From positions 64,001-128,000 of IMG/VR virus record IMGVR_UViG_3300047476_000982: DNA of 64,000 bases. One strand, 5' to 3'. The position numbers and the translations under genes are program-made. Origin of the DNA: a virus. Within the stretch, counting starts at the first letter, position 1. Each line of letters starts with the position of its first letter. This document shows, piece after piece, positions 45,949-54,224 of the stretch. The notes under the pieces are model-generated. The model did not search any database, was not told the DNA's origin, and worked only from the letters and a program-made list of their open reading frames with translations.

Positions 45949-45977
45949 AAAAAGAGGCCCGGGTGGATACCCAGGCC
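45948..45977 (-). terminator. Intrinsic terminator downstream of HTH gene
   Basis: Minus-strand GGCCUGGGU-AUCC-ACCCGGGCC hairpin (G-U wobble only on the minus strand) followed by CUC and a U-tract. Confidence 0.75.
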
Positions 45978-46338: not shown

Positions 46339-46839
46339 TTAGAATTCGTCTTCAAATAGATCATCTCCGAAGTCTTCAAATACCGGCTGATTCATCTCAG
46401 CATTCACTAAGTCTAAAGTTTGTAGTGCAAACTCTTTACTAACCCAAGGACTACCGTCTACATCTACGATGTCAGCAATGTAGTAAAGTCCGTCCATTTC
46501 TTTTAAGTCGCTCAATTTCATTTTGTAATTCATAACCTTTATTGTTTTAATTTTTTAATCTATTAATGCTTTTACTTTAGTTACCCAAGCAGTTATATCC
46601 TCGATAAATTGTTTTGCTCTATCTACAGTTTTAGTATAAGCAAAAAACTGACAATACTCAGAGTCGAAGGTAATACTTGAGCAATCTATATGCTTCCGAA
46701 TATATTCCTCAAGATCATAAGCACTTTCAAAATCTCTAAATTTATAGGCATTTGCTATCTTGCCTGTAACTGTGTACTCTTCTTTGTCTTCGTCTAACTT
46801 GTAAATAAGGAACCCAACTGGATACTTAATGTCTTGCAT
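46339..46839 (-). other. Two small hypothetical ORFs (46339-46533, 46555-46839) sharing the leader AAAACAATAAAGGTTATG
   Basis: Identical upstream leaders. Confidence 0.55.
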
Positions 46840-46862
46840 AACCTTTATTGTTTTAATTTTTG

Positions 46863-46936
46863 CGCATCCTCCTGGACTCGAACCAGGGACCTAATGATTA
46901 ACAGTCATTTGCTCTAACCAACTGAGCTAAGGATGC
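46863..46936 (-). tRNA. trnN: tRNA-Asn (GTT)
   Basis: GCATCCT acceptor, AGCTCAGTTGGTTAGAGC D arm, ATGAC-CTGTTAA-region anticodon loop with GTT, CCTGG-TTCGAGT-CCAGG T arm, G73; CCA not encoded. Confidence 0.93.
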
Positions 46937-46940
46937 GTGG

Positions 46941-47036
46941 CGTTCCATATTACTCACATCTGATAATCATATCGGATTACCAACTTAATCCTACAACAGC
47001 TTTTAACTGAGAGATTGCAGGGATATGTATGGAACA
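46941..47036 (-). ncRNA. Candidate three-way-junction structured RNA in tRNA cluster
   Basis: Closing 9-bp stem UGUUCCAUA/UAUGGAACG, inner CCUGCAA/UUGUAGG stem, and AUCCGAUA...UAUCAGAU hairpin. Confidence 0.45.
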
Positions 47037-47041
47037 TTTTG

Positions 47042-47152
47042 CAGTCAGGGCAGGATTCGAACCTGCGACTTTTTCGGATAACTCTTTTATAAGCAACGGT
47101 TGATGCTATCTTCCGCCACTGTCCTTGCGTCTACCAATTTCGCCACCTGACT
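47042..47152 (-). ncRNA. tRNA-like element 1 (111 nt, no canonical anticodon arm)
   Basis: AGTCAGG/CCTGACT acceptor, GCG-AAATTGGTAGA-CGC D arm, GCAGG-TTCGAAT-CCTGC T arm, ~60-nt insert; starts 2 nt after tRNA-Leu. Confidence 0.8.
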
Positions 47153-47154
47153 TG

Positions 47155-47236
47155 TACCCCATGAGAGACTCGAACTCTCAAACCTTACGGCAATAGATCC
47201 TAAATCTATCGTGTCTACCAATTCCACCAACGGGGC
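47155..47236 (-). tRNA. trnL: tRNA-Leu (TAG)
   Basis: GCCCCGT/ATGGGGT acceptor + A73, GGTGGAATTGGTAGACAC D arm, ATAGA-TTTAGGA-TCTAT anticodon arm, long variable arm, GAGAG-TTCGAGT-CTCTC T arm. Confidence 0.92.
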
Positions 47237-47359
47237 TGGTCGGGTCTCTCCCCGTATGTCACTTGCTGAGATCTTTACCGGCGGTCGCACTGTACATAAC
47301 CTAGATAAGTTGTACAGATTCTCCATTTAGGGCTCTCTTTAAGTTACATTCCCCCAAAG

Positions 47360-47461
47360 TAGTCAGGACAGGACTCGAACCTGTAAGAACTTACGTGGCA
47401 CGGTCACTTGCAGTTCTCTCTCTTGCCGTACGATAGCGTTTCCCATTTGCGCCACCTGACT
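47360..47461 (-). ncRNA. tRNA-like element 2 (102 nt)
   Basis: Same acceptor stem; GCG-CAAATGGGAAA-CGC D arm; ACAGG-TTCGAGT-CCTGT T arm; unrelated insert. Confidence 0.8.
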
Positions 47462-47467
47462 AGTTGT

Positions 47468-48204
47468 TTAATCCCAACAACCTGCTAAGACCTCTAAATG
47501 GTGGTCGATAGCAATTTGAGTGGATCTGAAAGAGTCATAGTCAAACTTTAACTCTGGCCACCTACTATCATCATCCCATCCTTTAGGGAACATAGGTTCG
47601 TAATTAGGATTTTGTTGCATGTATTCTTCTTGGCTCATGCGGACCATTTTTTCTAATTCATTCTTACACATATTATAAAATTTTAATTGTTACTAAAGAT
47701 AATCTTGGATGTCATATGAATGTTCTGTCTGATAGATCTTGACAATACTATCTCCATGAAATTCAACACTCTTTTTTAAAGCTTCACGATTCTTGACAGG
47801 ATAATCAAGTATCCCACCATTAGGATGTCTCAATTCGACTCTTACGCAATCGTAAGACTCAATGTATCCGGTAAATTCTGCATCGAACTGTTCTTGTTCT
47901 GTCTCAAAGCTAAACTTAAAATCTGCGATATTCATATTCATTATTGATTTGTTGTTATTAAAGATTATGCTTCTACATGCACACCAAAAATGTAAGATGT
48001 AACTTCGCATTCAAGGTTTAGCATTAAGTCGCCAGGTCCGATATGACGTCTAACAAATGATTTGTCTATGTACATACCATCTAGCGTGACAGTATCGTCG
48101 TTCTTAAAAGATTCAAAATAATCCGCAGTCCTGTTCAAGCATCTGCTTCTGAGGGCGGCTGTCAATTGCGGAAGGTTCATTCTGTAGTTACTAAGCATAT
48201 TCAT
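47468..48204 (-). other. Small hypothetical ORFs (47468-47671, 47693-~47941, 47965-48204)
   Basis: The 47693 ORF probably starts at MNMNIADF, which shares the CAAATCAATAATGAATATG leader with the genes starting at 45798 and 48204. Confidence 0.5.
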
Positions 48205-48356
48205 TATTGATTTGATACATAGTAAAATTAAGACAAATTTTTGATATAAAAAAATTTTTTTTGATCTTTTTCAAAAATTGTCGATTGAAAATCAATAAGT
48301 TATAACTTGTTGATAATCAATTAGTTATGTAAGTGATTGAAAATCAATAACTTATG
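48205..48356 (-). promoter_or_regulatory. Conserved promoter locus C with three 21-bp motifs
   Basis: Core TGATACATAGTAAAATTAAGACA; motifs start at 48284, 48309, 48336. Confidence 0.8.
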
Positions 48357-48359
48357 CCA

Positions 48360-49510
48360 TTATTGGTTCAAAAGGATGATCATTTGGACGCAGAAGACGC
48401 TCAGGATCGCTGCCAGGATCACCACAATCATCACAGACGAGGCATCTCTTTGTCCGTAGACATCTTTATAGACTTTTCTAACCATCCAATTAGACGCATG
48501 TTGAATGCCTGCAAATAGGAATACAAGGGCGATTGTTGCAATAAGTGTTGCCATATTATTTTGTTTTACATTCTTTTTCTAAATAATTCCATAAAGATTT
48601 TACATCGTAGCAAATAGGTTTCTCATCTTTATCCCATGCTTTAGGATTCTTCTTACTCATCTTCTTACCAAAATCATTTTCATAACAAAACCAACTGAAC
48701 CAGTCATAACCTTCTAAACCGTAAATCTCAGTAAACAAAGTTGTTATAACACATTCATAAGGATCTGCAAAATTAATTAAGTCTACATTAAGACTATTTA
48801 ATGTATGCATGTCATCATTTTGTTTCTTTAGTGTGTTGATGATCACTGTAAATGTTGATAGTTCCATAACTTAAAATTTACCCCATTGACTATTTTTCTT
48901 AAGTTCTTCTGCTATTTTAAAACCTAAAAATATGTCCTTAAAAAATTTTACTATTTTATTCTTCATTCTTTTTCTTTGTCCATTTAGAATTAGCTACTAG
49001 ATCATCCCAATCTTTATATCCTTGTGACTTAGCATACTCATCATTCTTTTTTCTTTGATATGCTTTAATTACTTCAGGTTCTCTCATCTGATCACTATCA
49101 GTAAAGCCAAGTGCTTTAGCACATTCCTCTTCACACCATTCATGTGAACCTATCTTTATTTCAATTGGTAGATCTGTTTCTATTGATTCAATAAAGTCTT
49201 CAAACTGAGATGCTACTTCATGAGGTAGAGTGTAGATTCCTTCATCTACTTGATAACCTGATTCATTCTCTTTATCAAATATTTCAATCCTACCCATTCT
49301 GTATTTCTCACCAAATAAACTAAATACACCATAACCTACAGTTGAATAATAATACCTACCCTCTCTTGCCACACCATTTACATCAATACAAGCTGGATTC
49401 ATTTCAATGTAATTAGCAAGATGATCAGCAAACTCTTCAGGTGTTGAATTAGGATAATTGTACTTAACATTGTCTATATACCATTTAAGTTTGTCCCTAT
49501 TTACTTTCAT
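48360..49510 (-). other. Small hypothetical ORFs (48360-48554 membrane, 48556-48867, 48956-49510)
   Basis: ORF track. Confidence 0.5.
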
Positions 49511-49512
49511 AC

Positions 49513-49983
49513 TTATTCACTTAATCTATGTGTTACTGTAATTATGTTTACTTGTGTTGCGATATTTGATTCTTCACAATCATAGTTCAAACAAATAGCT
49601 GATCTAATTACACTATTAATGTCAACTACTCTTTCATCAAACATCTTCTCTGTAATTCTAGGAACTTCGTCTTCAATACAACAAGCGCCACCACAATCTT
49701 TATATCTAACCACTTTAGAAATAGTATAGATGTATCTAGTCTTTGCCCTTGCTATTGCCTTATATACTGTATCAATATGTTCAGGTAGGTAATAGTCATA
49801 GCTATCCAAATAGCAAATGTATTTCAAACCTTCACCTAGTATAGATTGAATAGTCTGATCAATAGACTCAGGATTGGTCTCATAGACTTTAAACTCTTTA
49901 TTTGTTTGTTGTTCTAATGAAGCCAAACATTTATTTAAGAGTCTATCTTCTCCTTCATGTTTAATTAGTAGTACTGCTATCAT
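49513..49983 (-). CDS. Truncated/compact GT2-like glycosyltransferase
   Basis: CLASLEQQT, KYICYLDSYDYYLPEHI motifs. Confidence 0.55.
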   Translation of the reverse strand: MIAVLLIKHEGEDRLLNKCLASLEQQTNKEFKVYETNPESIDQTIQSILGEGLKYICYLDSYDYYLPEHIDTVYKAIARAKTRYIYTISKVVRYKDCGGACCIEDEVPRITEKMFDERVVDINSVIRSAICLNYDCEESNIATQVNIITVTHRLSE

Positions 49984-49985
49984 AA

Positions 49986-50898
49986 TTATTTAATTTTAAC
50001 TTCACCATTAATTAATAGGTCTGCTATTTTCTTTTGACCAAGTTCTACTTTCTCCTCTAGATTCTCTGCTCTAGCATTTAAATAACCTACAACAAAACCA
50101 TTAATCCAAAAGTACTTATCATTCTCATCACAACCCTGACATCCTTCCCATTGCTTTTCGGCTAGTTGTTCTATTTCTTTTAATGTCATGATTTATTTTT
50201 TAATACCAAACGCATCAAATGCTGATACGGTAGGTAATGGTTTATCCAAATGTACTATACGATATGAATATAATTTATCGATGATTTCTATTAAACGCTT
50301 CTTAGCATTTTCATCAATAATACTACACTCATCAGTATATTCTAATTCTATGTCGGTTGTTTTAATTTTCAGTGTCATAACTTATTTAGTTGATTTAATC
50401 AATTCAATAAATTTATCTAATTCTTGTCTATTAAATACAAATAATTCTAAAGTGTATCTAGTATCATCGAAAAATTTTGATCCTTCTTCTACCTTAACAT
50501 CTTTCCATCTATTTGCAATCATCTCATCTGTAAATCTCTTTACTACTTCGTGTGTAAATCGTGCTTGTATATTATCAAAAACTCGACTTAACTCATACTC
50601 CATTTCTTTAGTCATTACATAATGTGATGTGACTTTGCTACCTACTATCATCTTTGATATTTCTGGTGTCATAACTTATTTATATTCTTTCAATTTTCCT
50701 AATAACAGTTCTATTAACAGGATACATAGCTACTGTTTCTCTATGTTTAATTCCATCCTCATCTTCTCCTATTATCTTCCAAAAATCATAAACACCACTG
50801 CTAGTACCCCAATTAATTCCATCAGCTTCCACCGTTATAAGGTTTGTTATTATACCTAACGGACCACCAACTATTAAATCTAAATGGTATAAGTTCAT
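49986..50898 (-). other. Small hypothetical ORFs (49986-50189, 50193-50378, 50382-50672, 50680-50898)
   Basis: Packed co-oriented ORFs. Confidence 0.5.
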
Positions 50899-50913
50899 TT
50901 GTTATTTCTTTTG

Positions 50914-51051
50914 TAGTCAGGACAGGATTCGAACCTGTATAATTGCCTTTAAAGGGTAAGGGTGGTCAACTAGGAACGGGAACTTTCACCCATCTCGTAT
51001 ACTCTAATCCCTTGGAGGTAACCCTGCGTCTACCAATTTCGCCACCTGACT
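50914..51051 (-). ncRNA. tRNA-like element 3 (138 nt)
   Basis: Same acceptor stem; D arm identical to element 1; ACAGG-TTCGAAT-CCTGT T arm; insert with AGGGT/ACCCT, AAGGG/CCCTT and ATGGG/CCCGT helices. Confidence 0.8.
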
Positions 51052-51059
51052 GACCTTTA

Positions 51060-51857
51060 TTACTTAATAGCTTTTACAAATGGAAGTGCTTGTCCAGACC
51101 ACGTAGATGGTAATACACCATTCCATTTTTGAATTGCTTCTTGTTGCAATAACTCTTGAGTAATACCTCTTGATTTGATAATATTCTCTTGAGCTTGTAG
51201 CTCAGCAAGTTCATTACGTTTCTTTTGTTCAGCAATCTGTTGATCGAGTACAGTAATGTTTGTATTCACCTCATTACGATTATCAATCTTAGCCTTCACT
51301 TTTTCAGAAAAGTCTAGGTTACAGCTAAAGGTTATTAGTTCAAGACCTTTATCTTCAAATGACTTCTTAACAAGCTTCTGTACTACATCTTCAAATCTAA
51401 GTGAACCACCATTAGCCATCAAAGTATCTGTTACATACTTCCTTGATTCTTCTTTAATCAAATCATAAACGTGAGGTTCAAGTACATTGTCTTCTAATGC
51501 ACGCATAAAATCATCTCCTGATCCAAGTCTACTATTCTGGAATACTAGATCAACTACTTTACTCTTCATTACCTTGTAACTGTATAAAGGTTTTGCAGTG
51601 AACTCAGTATTGTCTGCTGCTTTAAGATGTAATAACTTGTCTTCAAAATCTGCTCTTTGTTCAAATGCTGGCACTTGGAATAGTTCTGTTCCAGGACTCA
51701 TTACATTTACCCTACCTTGTTGAGGTGTGTAATCATCCTTACCGTTCTTACCATAATTCTCCATCAATACACCGAAGTAGTTCGGTGCTACACGTTCACA
51801 TGAATCAAATACAAAAATAATTAATAATGCTGCTAAACTGACGATAACTCTTTTCAT
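51060..51857 (-). CDS. SPFH/Band 7 (prohibitin-like) lipoprotein; probable start at 51857
   Basis: MKRVIVSLAALLIIFVFDS-C lipoprotein signal; VAPNYFGV, coiled coil, EAIQKWNGVLP C-terminal SPFH signature. Confidence 0.85.
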   Translation of the reverse strand: MKRVIVSLAALLIIFVFDSCERVAPNYFGVLMENYGKNGKDDYTPQQGRVNVMSPGTELFQVPAFEQRADFEDKLLHLKAADNTEFTAKPLYSYKVMKSKVVDLVFQNSRLGSGDDFMRALEDNVLEPHVYDLIKEESRKYVTDTLMANGGSLRFEDVVQKLVKKSFEDKGLELITFSCNLDFSEKVKAKIDNRNEVNTNITVLDQQIAEQKKRNELAELQAQENIIKSRGITQELLQQEAIQKWNGVLPSTWSGQALPFVKAIK

Positions 51858-51859
51858 TT

Positions 51860-52012
51860 TTATTTGTTTTTTAAATACTGATTGAATCCTAAAATAATTA
51901 TAAATCCTAAACCAAATGCAAGCCATGGGTTAATATGATTAAATGACCATGCTATTGCAAATACAGATAGAAGAACTATCAATATCAAAATTAAATATTT
52001 ATTGTTTATCAT
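51860..52012 (-). CDS. Small membrane protein (50 aa; below ORF-track cutoff)
   Basis: MINNKYLILILIVLLSVFAIAWSFNHINPWLAFGLGFIIILGFNQYLKNK*; immediately upstream of the SPFH gene. Confidence 0.65.
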   Translation of the reverse strand: MINNKYLILILIVLLSVFAIAWSFNHINPWLAFGLGFIIILGFNQYLKNK

Positions 52013-52027
52013 AAAAATCTATTTTTG

Positions 52028-52127
52028 TAGTCAGGACAGGATTCGAACCTATACTCCGGCAAGTGCTTGGTACTATTCCCTCTCGGGCTACTCCCATTTC
52101 CGTCTGCTGCCATTACAATACCTGACT
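52028..52127 (-). ncRNA. tRNA-like element 4 (100 nt)
   Basis: Same acceptor stem; variant D arm TTGT-AATGGCA-GCAG; ATAGG-TTCGAAT-CCTGT T arm; insert contains CCC-GAGA-GGG GNRA hairpin. Confidence 0.75.
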
Positions 52128-52135
52128 ATTTTTAT

Positions 52136-52360
52136 TTACTTATTTCTTTTTATTGAACTTAATGCTTTGTACCCGCTATTTTTTATTGATTCCCCTATCT
52201 TTTCATATCCTCTCCAAACTTCTGATGCCCAAGTATATCTTGGGTTGATTGCTTTTCCGAAGTTTAATTCCCCGTCATAATCAACTCCAGCCCAATCAAC
52301 TTCTGGTGGCTGGTTACGGAAAACCTCTTGTCCAATTTCATTTTGTCCTTGATATTTCAT
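52136..52360 (-). CDS. Small hypothetical protein; probable start MKYQGQNE at 52360
   Basis: The longer start at 52435 overlaps tRNA-like element 5. Confidence 0.55.
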   Translation of the reverse strand: MKYQGQNEIGQEVFRNQPPEVDWAGVDYDGELNFGKAINPRYTWASEVWRGYEKIGESIKNSGYKALSSIKRNK

Positions 52361-52374
52361 AACTTTTAATTTAG

Positions 52375-52507
52375 TAGTCAGGACAGGATTCGAACCTGTA
52401 TTAGCTGTATGCAACCCGTAGCAGGATGTGACCAATTACGTCATTGGCTTGACAGAGCATACATTTAATCCCACACTAATAGCGTTTACCAGTTCCGCCA
52501 CCTGACT
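52375..52507 (-). ncRNA. tRNA-like element 5 (133 nt)
   Basis: Same acceptor stem; GCG-GAACTGGTAAA-CGC D arm; ACAGG-TTCGAAT-CCTGT T arm; insert ATTAG/CTAAT, TGTATGC/GCATACA, CCAAT/ATTGG helices. Confidence 0.8.
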
Positions 52508-52602
52508 ATTTGCTGTCTCTCCAAGCTGTCATACCACTTTGTATTCTGTTCTGGGGTATACCCGTTCCTAACGGTAAAGCGGTATCAAAAACCAGTATGA
52601 GT

Positions 52603-54224
52603 TTAATCTGCTAACAATTTCCTCCACCTTTGCTGCTCTTTATAAGGATCCACTACATAAGCATTAATCTCTTTCATAGCCTCATCTATACTAGTGAATG
52701 GAATTGTTTTACATCCAACAGTAACAATACATCCTATAGATAGAAATTCAATTTTAATTGGATATTCTCTAAGATAATAATTTCGGCTCATTGGTTCCTG
52801 AATTTTTACTCCTAGTTCTTCTTGCATTACTCTTGGTTCTGGAACATCTTGTAGTCTGTGATCGTACATAACTGTTTATTTTTGTTTTTATTAATTTCTA
52901 TTTATTTTATTTCAAATAAGTGCCACACAAATGGTCCATCTAGATAAGTTTCTATGTACTCTTTATTTGTATCATCAAAAGGGTGTCCTGTGCCTATAAC
53001 CTCAAACATTCTAGTTTCAGTTTCCATTTCTGGATCCACCTTTGCCCAAATACAAACATTGAATGAGTCTTGTACTTTAACTGCTAAGATCTCTGCGCCT
53101 TTTGGCATTTCTAATACGTTTTCTACTTTATACTTCCAAATCTCTTTCATAATTTATTTATCTGATATCTTAAGTCCACAATACAAATCAAGCCACGCCA
53201 TTTCACGCGCAGCTATTTTCGAATAGTGACGCTTCTTCTTCTTAATATGTTTAGTTCCCCATTCTCTCCACTCCTTATTCTGTTCTTCAGTCATGGTATA
53301 CTGTTGGAACCATTCATCAGTCCTACCTTCTACATCTTCAAACTTAAGATCGTGGCCTGCTATCTCAAACATCTTATCAATAAGTTCTTTAAGAAGCGCC
53401 CTCTCTTTGTTTGCTTTTATTTCTTGTCTTGTCATTGCTGTTTTCTTTTCGGGCCCATATATTTTTTATAGTTCCACTTAGGTCCACCTTGAAGTCTTGG
53501 TGTATAGCTATACCCTTTCTTTTTCGGGTACAAACAACTACTTCTTTTTCCTGTTACACAACCTGTAAATAGAATAGATCCTACAATTAATAATAGTACG
53601 GATGCTAGTTTAAAATTTTTCATATATGCTGTTTTAAAAGTTATTCCCTTTCTATTAAGGATTCAACTAATACCCAAATTAGAAAAAGAATACCTAAAAC
53701 TAAATTATCCATTCCAAACAGAACAGACAGTCCTAGTCCTACTACTAATTTAATTGATTTTAATCCTTGTTTAATAAATTTATTAGACCAATATTGATAA
53801 TAATTCCTCATTTCGTACGATTTTTATATATACCAAATATATGACATTTCACGGACCAGAGAAATTCTAACTTTTTAGTGAGTTAATCTCTTCTCTTAAC
53901 TCCACTAGACTCTTCTTATCTAATTCCATTTGGAGTAGCTGACCTATTACATAGCTAGTAACTATCTTTGATCTTTCTAGTAGGACATGATCCGGCTCTT
54001 TACAACCCGGGTCTGCAAATTTGTTTTCGATTATAAATTTAACTACTTTGATAATCTCTGTTGCTTCTTTTTTCATTCTCTATTTCTTTTCTTAGTTTTT
54101 GAATTTCTAATCTGTCTTTTTGATATTCATCGTTTTCGGACGGTCGGTGGCCATTGATCACGGCTCTAGTTACTTTTAGTTCTAGCGCTATTACTTTAGA
54201 TATTCTAGGGTCTTGCCAATTCAT
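52603..54224 (-). other. Cluster of small hypothetical ORFs (52603-52869, 52902-53150, 53154-53435, 53432-53623 lipoprotein-like, 53867-54076, 54039-54224)
   Basis: Packed ORFs; 53432-53623 has an LFTG-C lipobox. Confidence 0.5.

Follow-up and report, generated by a model that had tools for sequence, protein, structure and literature searches.

Phage-borne tRNA-like RNAs with a tRNA-Leu-type chassis and exchangeable structured inserts: a candidate natural RNA scaffold

A 64,000-nucleotide (nt) stretch of viral DNA (positions 64,001 to 128,000 of IMG/VR record IMGVR_UViG_3300047476_000982; the whole stretch is called the window) was found to carry five tRNA-like elements, E1 to E5, all on the minus strand and at the coordinates given in an initial annotation of the same DNA. 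The elements combine a constant frame, here termed the chassis, with unrelated structured middles, and comparison with related loci supports derivation of the chassis from class II tRNA-Leu and a phage-borne family. We consider it probable, if by a small measure, that the chassis is a natural tRNA scaffold which would mature and stabilise exchangeable effector RNA domains. The elements and the two true tRNAs of the same RNA gene cluster are:

47042..47152, minus strand: E1, a 111-nt chassis RNA (insert 60 nt) that carries G73 and C48
47360..47461, minus strand: E2, a 102-nt chassis RNA (insert 51 nt)
50914..51051, minus strand: E3, a 138-nt chassis RNA (insert 87 nt)
50963..51008, minus strand: invariant core of the E3 insert, 46 nt, an irregular hairpin at the arm tip
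52028..52127, minus strand: E4, a 100-nt chassis RNA whose D arm is degenerate
52375..52507, minus strand: E5, a 133-nt chassis RNA (insert 82 nt)
47154..47236, minus strand: true tRNA-Leu(UAG), in the same orientation as E1 and immediately upstream of it (ARAGORN, Rfam)
46862..46936, minus strand: true tRNA-Asn(GUU), which closes the RNA gene cluster (ARAGORN, Rfam)

All five elements begin with the same 7-nt acceptor strand and end with the T arm, the complementary acceptor strand and the discriminator; the 7-base-pair (bp) acceptor stem, the GG-bearing D arm and the UUCRANU-type T loop are present as in tRNA. The D arm is of the tRNA-Leu type in four of them; that of E4 is non-Leu with a weak stem, and E4 belongs to the family by its 3' half and acceptor only. 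The 21-nt 3' half (T loop and acceptor strand) was counted in five copies in the window versus none in 100 shuffles, and the 26-nt 5' half (acceptor, U8 and Leu-type D arm) was found with at most three mismatches in E1, E3 and E5 where none was expected, E2 carrying a close variant of it. The shared acceptor stem, T arm and, in four elements, Leu-type D arm that the initial annotation described were thereby recovered, and its readings of the discriminator (A in E2 to E5, G in E1) and of a CCA end that is not encoded also held; C74 is encoded 3' of 5/5 elements and CCA in none. Its claim of compensatory variation in the T stem stood for E1, in which pair 49:65 is truly compensatory (G:C versus A:U), but not for E4, which has a U.G wobble and no compensated pair.

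The D arm and T arm are separated by 50–87 nt that cannot be aligned among E1 to E5 and that replace the anticodon and variable arms, in agreement with the unrelated, structured inserts first reported. Two interleaved 6-bp helices were read from the sequence of the E2 insert (element positions 31–75), which could fold into an H-type pseudoknot; the E5 insert contains a 7-bp helix and an inner hairpin, with a possible pseudoknot. ARAGORN with default settings called none of E1 to E5 and returned only tRNA-Asn and tRNA-Leu(UAG) in the window; Rfam at the gathering threshold gave the same two true tRNAs in the window and nothing else. With relaxed Rfam filters (46800–52800), E4 (37.2 bits) and E2 (30.7 bits) rose above the threshold of the tRNA model RF00005 through the chassis alone, with 40–43 nt (40 nt in E4) left unaligned at the place of the anticodon arm, and this match of chassis to tRNA was the sole Rfam match, so that assignment to a known Rfam family, which would have spoken against the initial annotation, was not seen. 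A PreQ1 match from the relaxed search (E = 9.1) was rejected as noise. An anticodon stem in the canonical place with a 7-nt loop (U33 and anticodon) was found in none of E1 to E5 by default ARAGORN or cmscan.

When introns were permitted, ARAGORN fitted E1, E2, E3 and E5 as tRNA-Ala, tRNA-Val, tRNA-Ser and tRNA-Pro with introns of 21–50 nt, and E4 at a lowered threshold only, as would be the case if the elements were decoding tRNAs whose introns or unusual arms are removed or tolerated. We regard this explanation as very improbable: the isotypes conflict with the shared Leu-type body, the region gives no group I intron signal in Rfam, and inserts of 50–87 nt are too short for group I or group II introns. 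The 'intron' of E3 is the most conserved part of the element, whose covarying helices leave no room for the proposed anticodon stem; that of E5 forms compensated pairs with the 'variable arm'. We know of no route in bacteria by which tRNA introns of 20–50 nt are spliced. The intron-containing models were rejected for this conflict with covariation in E3 and E5 and for their non-canonical sites, which vary between elements (32/33, 34/35 and 39/40); they yield no credible tRNAs, and splicing to normal tRNAs, a further outcome that would have counted against the initial annotation, was not supported.

For the extent of the family, viral contigs were scanned with the 3' half, by which the acceptor sequence was fixed, and the fetched loci were searched a second time with the D arm and T arm only. 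The 3' half was found in at least 120 uncultured viral contigs; among the matches listed, nearly all begin with the same 5' half, the elements measure 54–191 nt and the inserts about 0–140 nt, the shortest being exemplified by a 54-nt element in locus L055 with almost no insert. In the second search, in which the acceptor was ignored, 172 of 193 elements had 7/7 acceptor pairs (2–3 in a shifted control) and acceptor variants with compensated pairs exist; the acceptor stem is therefore a real helix, with one sequence dominant (109/128 non-tRNA elements). Grouping of 232 unique elements gave 202 insert classes. Among genomes at one per prokaryote species there were 22 matches, all in contigs of metagenome-assembled genomes and 11 of them in Bacteroidota, and no isolate genome carried the chassis. 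Nor was it found in cultured phages, in which E5 had no match and E3 matched only tRNA-Leu D arms or T arms; the 5' half matches annotated tRNA-Leu genes in cultured phages. The window is from a tailed phage (T4-type terminase, baseplate J) with one gene common to Bacteroides phages, and this phage probably belongs with Bacteroidota hosts.

Several family members depart from the common form. The same acceptor stem occurs in ordinary-looking decoding tRNAs, namely Lys(UUU) in L056 (13031–13101, minus strand) and Ile(UAU) in L092 (4958–5030, plus strand), and the chassis lineage thus includes real tRNAs. Structured insertions inside the D loop, as in L230 (3613–3800) and also in L030, L069, L071 and L087, give the family a second insertion site. 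In L229 (3804–4458) and L230 (1387–2041) one element occurs twice in tandem, with about 530 nt between the copies and almost identical inserts, and this looks like a recent duplication.

The inserts themselves are conserved and covary in several classes, which suggests that they are functional units. Homologs of the E3 insert were found in six IMG/VR contigs that have nothing else in common with the window, where the chassis around it has one of three compensated acceptor stems and either of two types of D arm and of T stem. Compensation was seen at 13 of the 36 pairs in this class, among them pairs of two helices at the base of the insert, and the 46-nt core (alignment columns 44–89) is nearly identical in five distinct sequences whose acceptor, D and T stems are not the same. 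The E2 element is 96–97% identical in L440 and 93% identical in L438, and the structural genes that L440 has in common with the window are only 65–73% identical. E5 has homologs in L143 (insert about 97% identical) and L113 (in another genomic context), with two compensated pairs, and three further insert classes covary. Lack of covariation in homologs, named beforehand as a sign of decay, was accordingly not observed.

At orthologous sites the inserts are exchanged. The lipoprotein beside the elements is 98% identical in amino acids (aa) in L225 and the surrounding DNA 93–95% identical; at the E3 site of L225 both chassis halves and both flanks are kept, and the 87-nt insert is replaced by an unrelated insert of 61 nt. 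A third insert occupies this site in L226, L227 and L289. At the E4 site homology with L225 stops inside the T arm, and the insert differs here too. L226 departs from the window in its inserts at E1 and E2, the E2/tRNA-Leu spacer between these being 96% identical. An element also follows the lipoprotein gene in more distant relatives, with a different insert in each. Since orthologous sites swap inserts with breakpoints in the chassis, these comparisons point to replacement by recombination inside the two conserved chassis halves. A constant frame with hundreds of inserts that are replaced between nearly identical phages is typical of genes under diversifying pressure.

Such exchange, together with the placement of the elements, can also be taken to indicate a role in cis or at the DNA level, in which the elements would punctuate polycistronic mRNAs through RNase P and RNase Z, or serve as dispersed 25-nt recombination repeats, the insert being incidental. 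Synteny of the window with L225 and with L226 breaks exactly at the chassis halves, and whole blocks of open reading frames (ORFs) between elements differ. About a third of the elements are tightly packed between ORFs, with peaks at 6–8 nt past the stop codon and 14–15 nt ahead of the ATG. Within the window, E3 lies 8 nt past the stop of ORF 51060–51926 and 15 nt ahead of the ATG of ORF 50680–50898, E4 lies 8 nt past a stop codon and 15 nt ahead of the ATG at 52012, E5 lies 14 nt ahead of the ATG at 52360, and E1 begins 2 nt past the tRNA-Leu discriminator. Many other elements, however, stand in pure tRNA clusters and not between ORFs, and an incidental insert does not agree with insert classes that are conserved and covary and, in one case, hold an invariant core. 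RNase P needs only the acceptor/T-arm stack of its substrate, yet the nucleotides of the D arm and elbow are retained. A purely cis-acting role is improbable on this evidence, and effects of this type could accompany a scaffold role as side effects.

Flanking positions were compared with those of 202 true tRNAs with other acceptor stems from the same phage loci (L001–L143):

U-1: chassis elements 84%, true tRNAs 66%
A-2: chassis elements 73%, true tRNAs 58%
C74: chassis elements 97.5%, true tRNAs 100%
A76: chassis elements 75%, true tRNAs 75%

Because the flanks match those of the true tRNAs, the elements are probably matured like tRNAs; bacterial RNase P prefers U-1. Of 336 nearest ORFs with 100 aa or more, 306 point the same way as their element, and this, like the order of stop codon, element and ATG at E3 and E4, belongs to the same tRNA-processing context. 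The tRNA-Asn(GUU) of the window has C74 followed by a run of A on its 3' side, as in the chassis elements. C74 is encoded in 202/202 of the true tRNAs and mostly followed by A-A rather than completed to CCA, which gives these loci a uniform 3' trailer. Absence of an anticodon and omission by standard tRNA finders would equally fit decaying tRNA pseudogenes or a chance similarity; this account is hardly credible in view of a chance expectation of zero matches, a chassis conserved with compensated pairs across hundreds of contigs, intact tRNA-type flanks and conserved inserts.

The chassis retains many features of leucine identity. Across the family U8 is present in 95% of elements, A73 in 89% and U48, just ahead of the T stem, in 86%; A14A15, G18G19 and an intact T loop are kept. 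Judged by sequence, the Leu set is present in E2, E3 and E5, with A73, A15:U48, G18G19, A20a, U8:A14 and the tertiary pairs between D loop and T loop. Leucyl-tRNA synthetase (LeuRS) of E. coli relies on A73, A15:U48, G18G19, A20a and the D/T-loop contacts and disregards the anticodon and the long variable arm (PMC9976931), and according to the account of Larkin 2002 (PMC115294) cited there, tRNA-Leu without anticodon and variable arms is still charged. By these E. coli rules, from which those of the host may differ, most of the family appears to retain the parts that LeuRS needs and to replace those that it can dispense with; leucylation of the chassis RNAs is for this reason a testable possibility, to which E1 (G73, C48) and E4 do not conform.

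Retention of this set invites the explanation that the chassis itself is the effector, a non-decoding tRNA mimic whose insert mainly blocks decoding or tunes its shape, with conceivable targets that include LeuRS, EF-Tu, the CCA-adding enzyme and host defence toxins which act on tRNA acceptor ends by modification or cleavage. The dominance of one acceptor sequence, the occurrence of several copies per genome and near-insertless members such as the L055 element agree with a mimic of this kind. The 46-nt core of E3, on the other hand, stays constant while acceptor, D and T stems vary, the E2 and E5 inserts are kept across diverged phages, 202 different inserts would be needless, and E1 (G73, C48) and E4 (odd D arm) are without part of the Leu set. 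We judge this explanation unlikely, but it deserves the most weight among the alternatives.

According to the scaffold reading, E1 to E5 would be transcribed from the minus strand together with the neighbouring tRNAs and small genes and then excised by the enzymes that mature phage tRNAs, with RNase P acting at the 5' end and the same 3' pathway followed by CCA completion. The resulting RNAs are predicted to fold into an L shape with an exchangeable structured domain in the place of the anticodon arm. The chassis would serve as a handle for maturation and stability and, given that the elements needed by E. coli LeuRS are kept, possibly also as a ligand of LeuRS or EF-Tu; the insert would be a trans-acting effector domain for a protein, an RNA or a small ligand. 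The scaffold interpretation of the initial annotation is supported in part, namely by the phage-borne, tRNA-Leu-derived and constant chassis, the lack of a usable anticodon arm, the varied structured middles and the tRNA-processing context. A more specific version, in which the inserts form a library of aptamers or decoys that phages exchange rapidly in host conflict and display on a matured, CCA-tagged and perhaps leucylated chassis (e.g. to soak up the nucleotides of immune signalling or to divert defence proteins that bind RNA), is put forward tentatively and we rate it as rather unlikely.

Several results weigh against the scaffold reading. A generic stability handle would not obviously require one dominant acceptor sequence, the incomplete Leu sets of E1 and E4 fit it no better, and whole-element folding z-scores are unremarkable for E2 to E4. 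High insert identity could partly reflect recent transfer, not selection. No homologs of the E1 and E4 inserts were found, the 16-mer scans hitting a protease gene and unrelated DNA. No insert was assigned to an Rfam family in the relaxed search of 46800–52800 or in 15 related loci, in which the gathering threshold gave only tRNA, tmRNA and, elsewhere, one group I intron. Antisense or repeat targets of the five inserts were not found above shuffled controls in the 64-kb window. A conserved neighbour protein was not found among 2283 ORFs from 144 sequences, in which the largest cluster was present in 13 loci only; the neighbour-ORF clusters that could be named are ordinary phage genes (terminase, methylases, ERF, VRR-NUC).

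The family was compared with known tRNA-like RNAs. Phage T5 RNA1 and RNA2 (NC_005859, misc_RNA T5s03 and T5s06) lie inside a phage tRNA cluster and are annotated as 'tRNA-like stable RNA with unknown functions'. RNA1 resembles the chassis elements in its acceptor-type stem, Leu-type D arm (with the same D loop), T arm and non-tRNA middle of about 80 nt; for RNA2, inspection of the sequence gives a terminal stem of 8 bp, a T arm that resembles the one in the chassis and a nested T-arm-like hairpin. Both differ from the chassis family in acceptor sequences and inserts, have no match to the window elements beyond tRNA motifs and are single genes of a cultured coliphage; to our knowledge they belong to no large family with cassette exchange. 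Species 1 RNA (rnaC, 139 nt) and species 2 RNA (rnaD) of phage T4 are stable small RNAs encoded beside the T4 tRNAs. The former has a canonical T arm, paired ends and a long non-tRNA middle like the chassis elements but no Leu-type D arm, and the latter has neither a D arm of this type nor a T arm; neither RNA aligns with the chassis, and both are, by comparison of their sequences, analogues and not family members. The initial annotation had recognised no described family, a statement that has to be softened because T5 RNA1 has the same architecture, Leu-type D arm included, and T4 species 1 is a looser analogue. The chassis family is a variant of known but unexplained phage tRNA-like stable RNAs.

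Class II tRNA-Leu (RF00005) has in common with the chassis the D and T arms, the 7-bp acceptor stem, U8, A14A15, G18G19, U48, A73 and the flanks; the chassis differs in having no anticodon stem-loop and in an acceptor that is not that of the phage's own tRNA-Leu. The engineered tRNA scaffold of Ponchon and Dardel, in which a foreign structured RNA in the place of the anticodon arm is processed and protected by the cell (PMC3753655), is man-made, whereas the chassis family is natural, multi-copy and evolving; by analogy, the same logic may apply to the latter. The tRNA-like domain of transfer-messenger RNA (tmRNA) and YrlA (PMC4201824) are likewise non-decoding and keep the acceptor/T-arm or elbow, but tmRNA is about 350 nt long with Ala identity and a tag reading frame, and in YrlA the RNA ends are on the opposite side of the tRNA-like module (PMC4201824). 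The Rfam models of tmRNA and YrlA gave no match to the elements, and identity with tmRNA was rejected, as ARAGORN and Rfam found none in the window and position 3:70 is U:A, not G3:U70. Viral structured RNAs were surveyed in a 2023 study that names tRNA-like candidates and gives no description of the chassis family (PMC10690425); a 2026 preprint on bacterial tRNA mimics deals with other motifs.

T4 species 1 and T5 RNA1 and RNA2 have been known for decades without a function, and the present comparison makes this tRNA-like stable-RNA design widespread and modular, with one tRNA-Leu frame and hundreds of different, conserved structured inserts. If the inserts are effectors, the family would offer a large and so far unexploited repertoire of natural RNA domains and would prove from nature that tRNA scaffolding works in cells. 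Were the chassis charged with leucine, an aminoacyl-tRNA synthetase would be put to a new use, and an aptamer or decoy library, if real, would parallel in nature the engineered tRNA scaffolds and define a new class of anti-defence built on RNA. The inserts of E2, E3 and E5 provide concrete conserved RNAs for tests.

Further features were noted in the surroundings of the elements. The 105-nt spacer between E1 and tRNA-Asn (46937–47041, minus strand) folds much more stably than shuffles (z = −3.7), is about 80% conserved in L150 and L072 and contains four compensated pairs; it is probably an additional, non-tRNA-like small RNA of the cluster. Folding of the 123-nt spacer between E2 and tRNA-Leu (47237–47359, minus strand) is unremarkable (z = 0.13). 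Downstream of the RNA cluster, a strong terminator-like hairpin with nine pairs, seven of them G-C, followed by a T run (45956–45977, minus strand) may end the minus-strand unit that holds E1 to E5. A scan for sigma-70 promoters gave fewer sites than shuffles and is therefore uninformative for this probable Bacteroidota phage. The AT-rich intergenic region 48230–48360 contains two copies of a motif of about 20 nt (GATTGAAAATCAATAA, then G or C, then TTAT) and may be a promoter or operator region. In L010 (7609–8193, minus strand) a phage tmRNA gene stands directly against a group I intron match of 97.8 bits.

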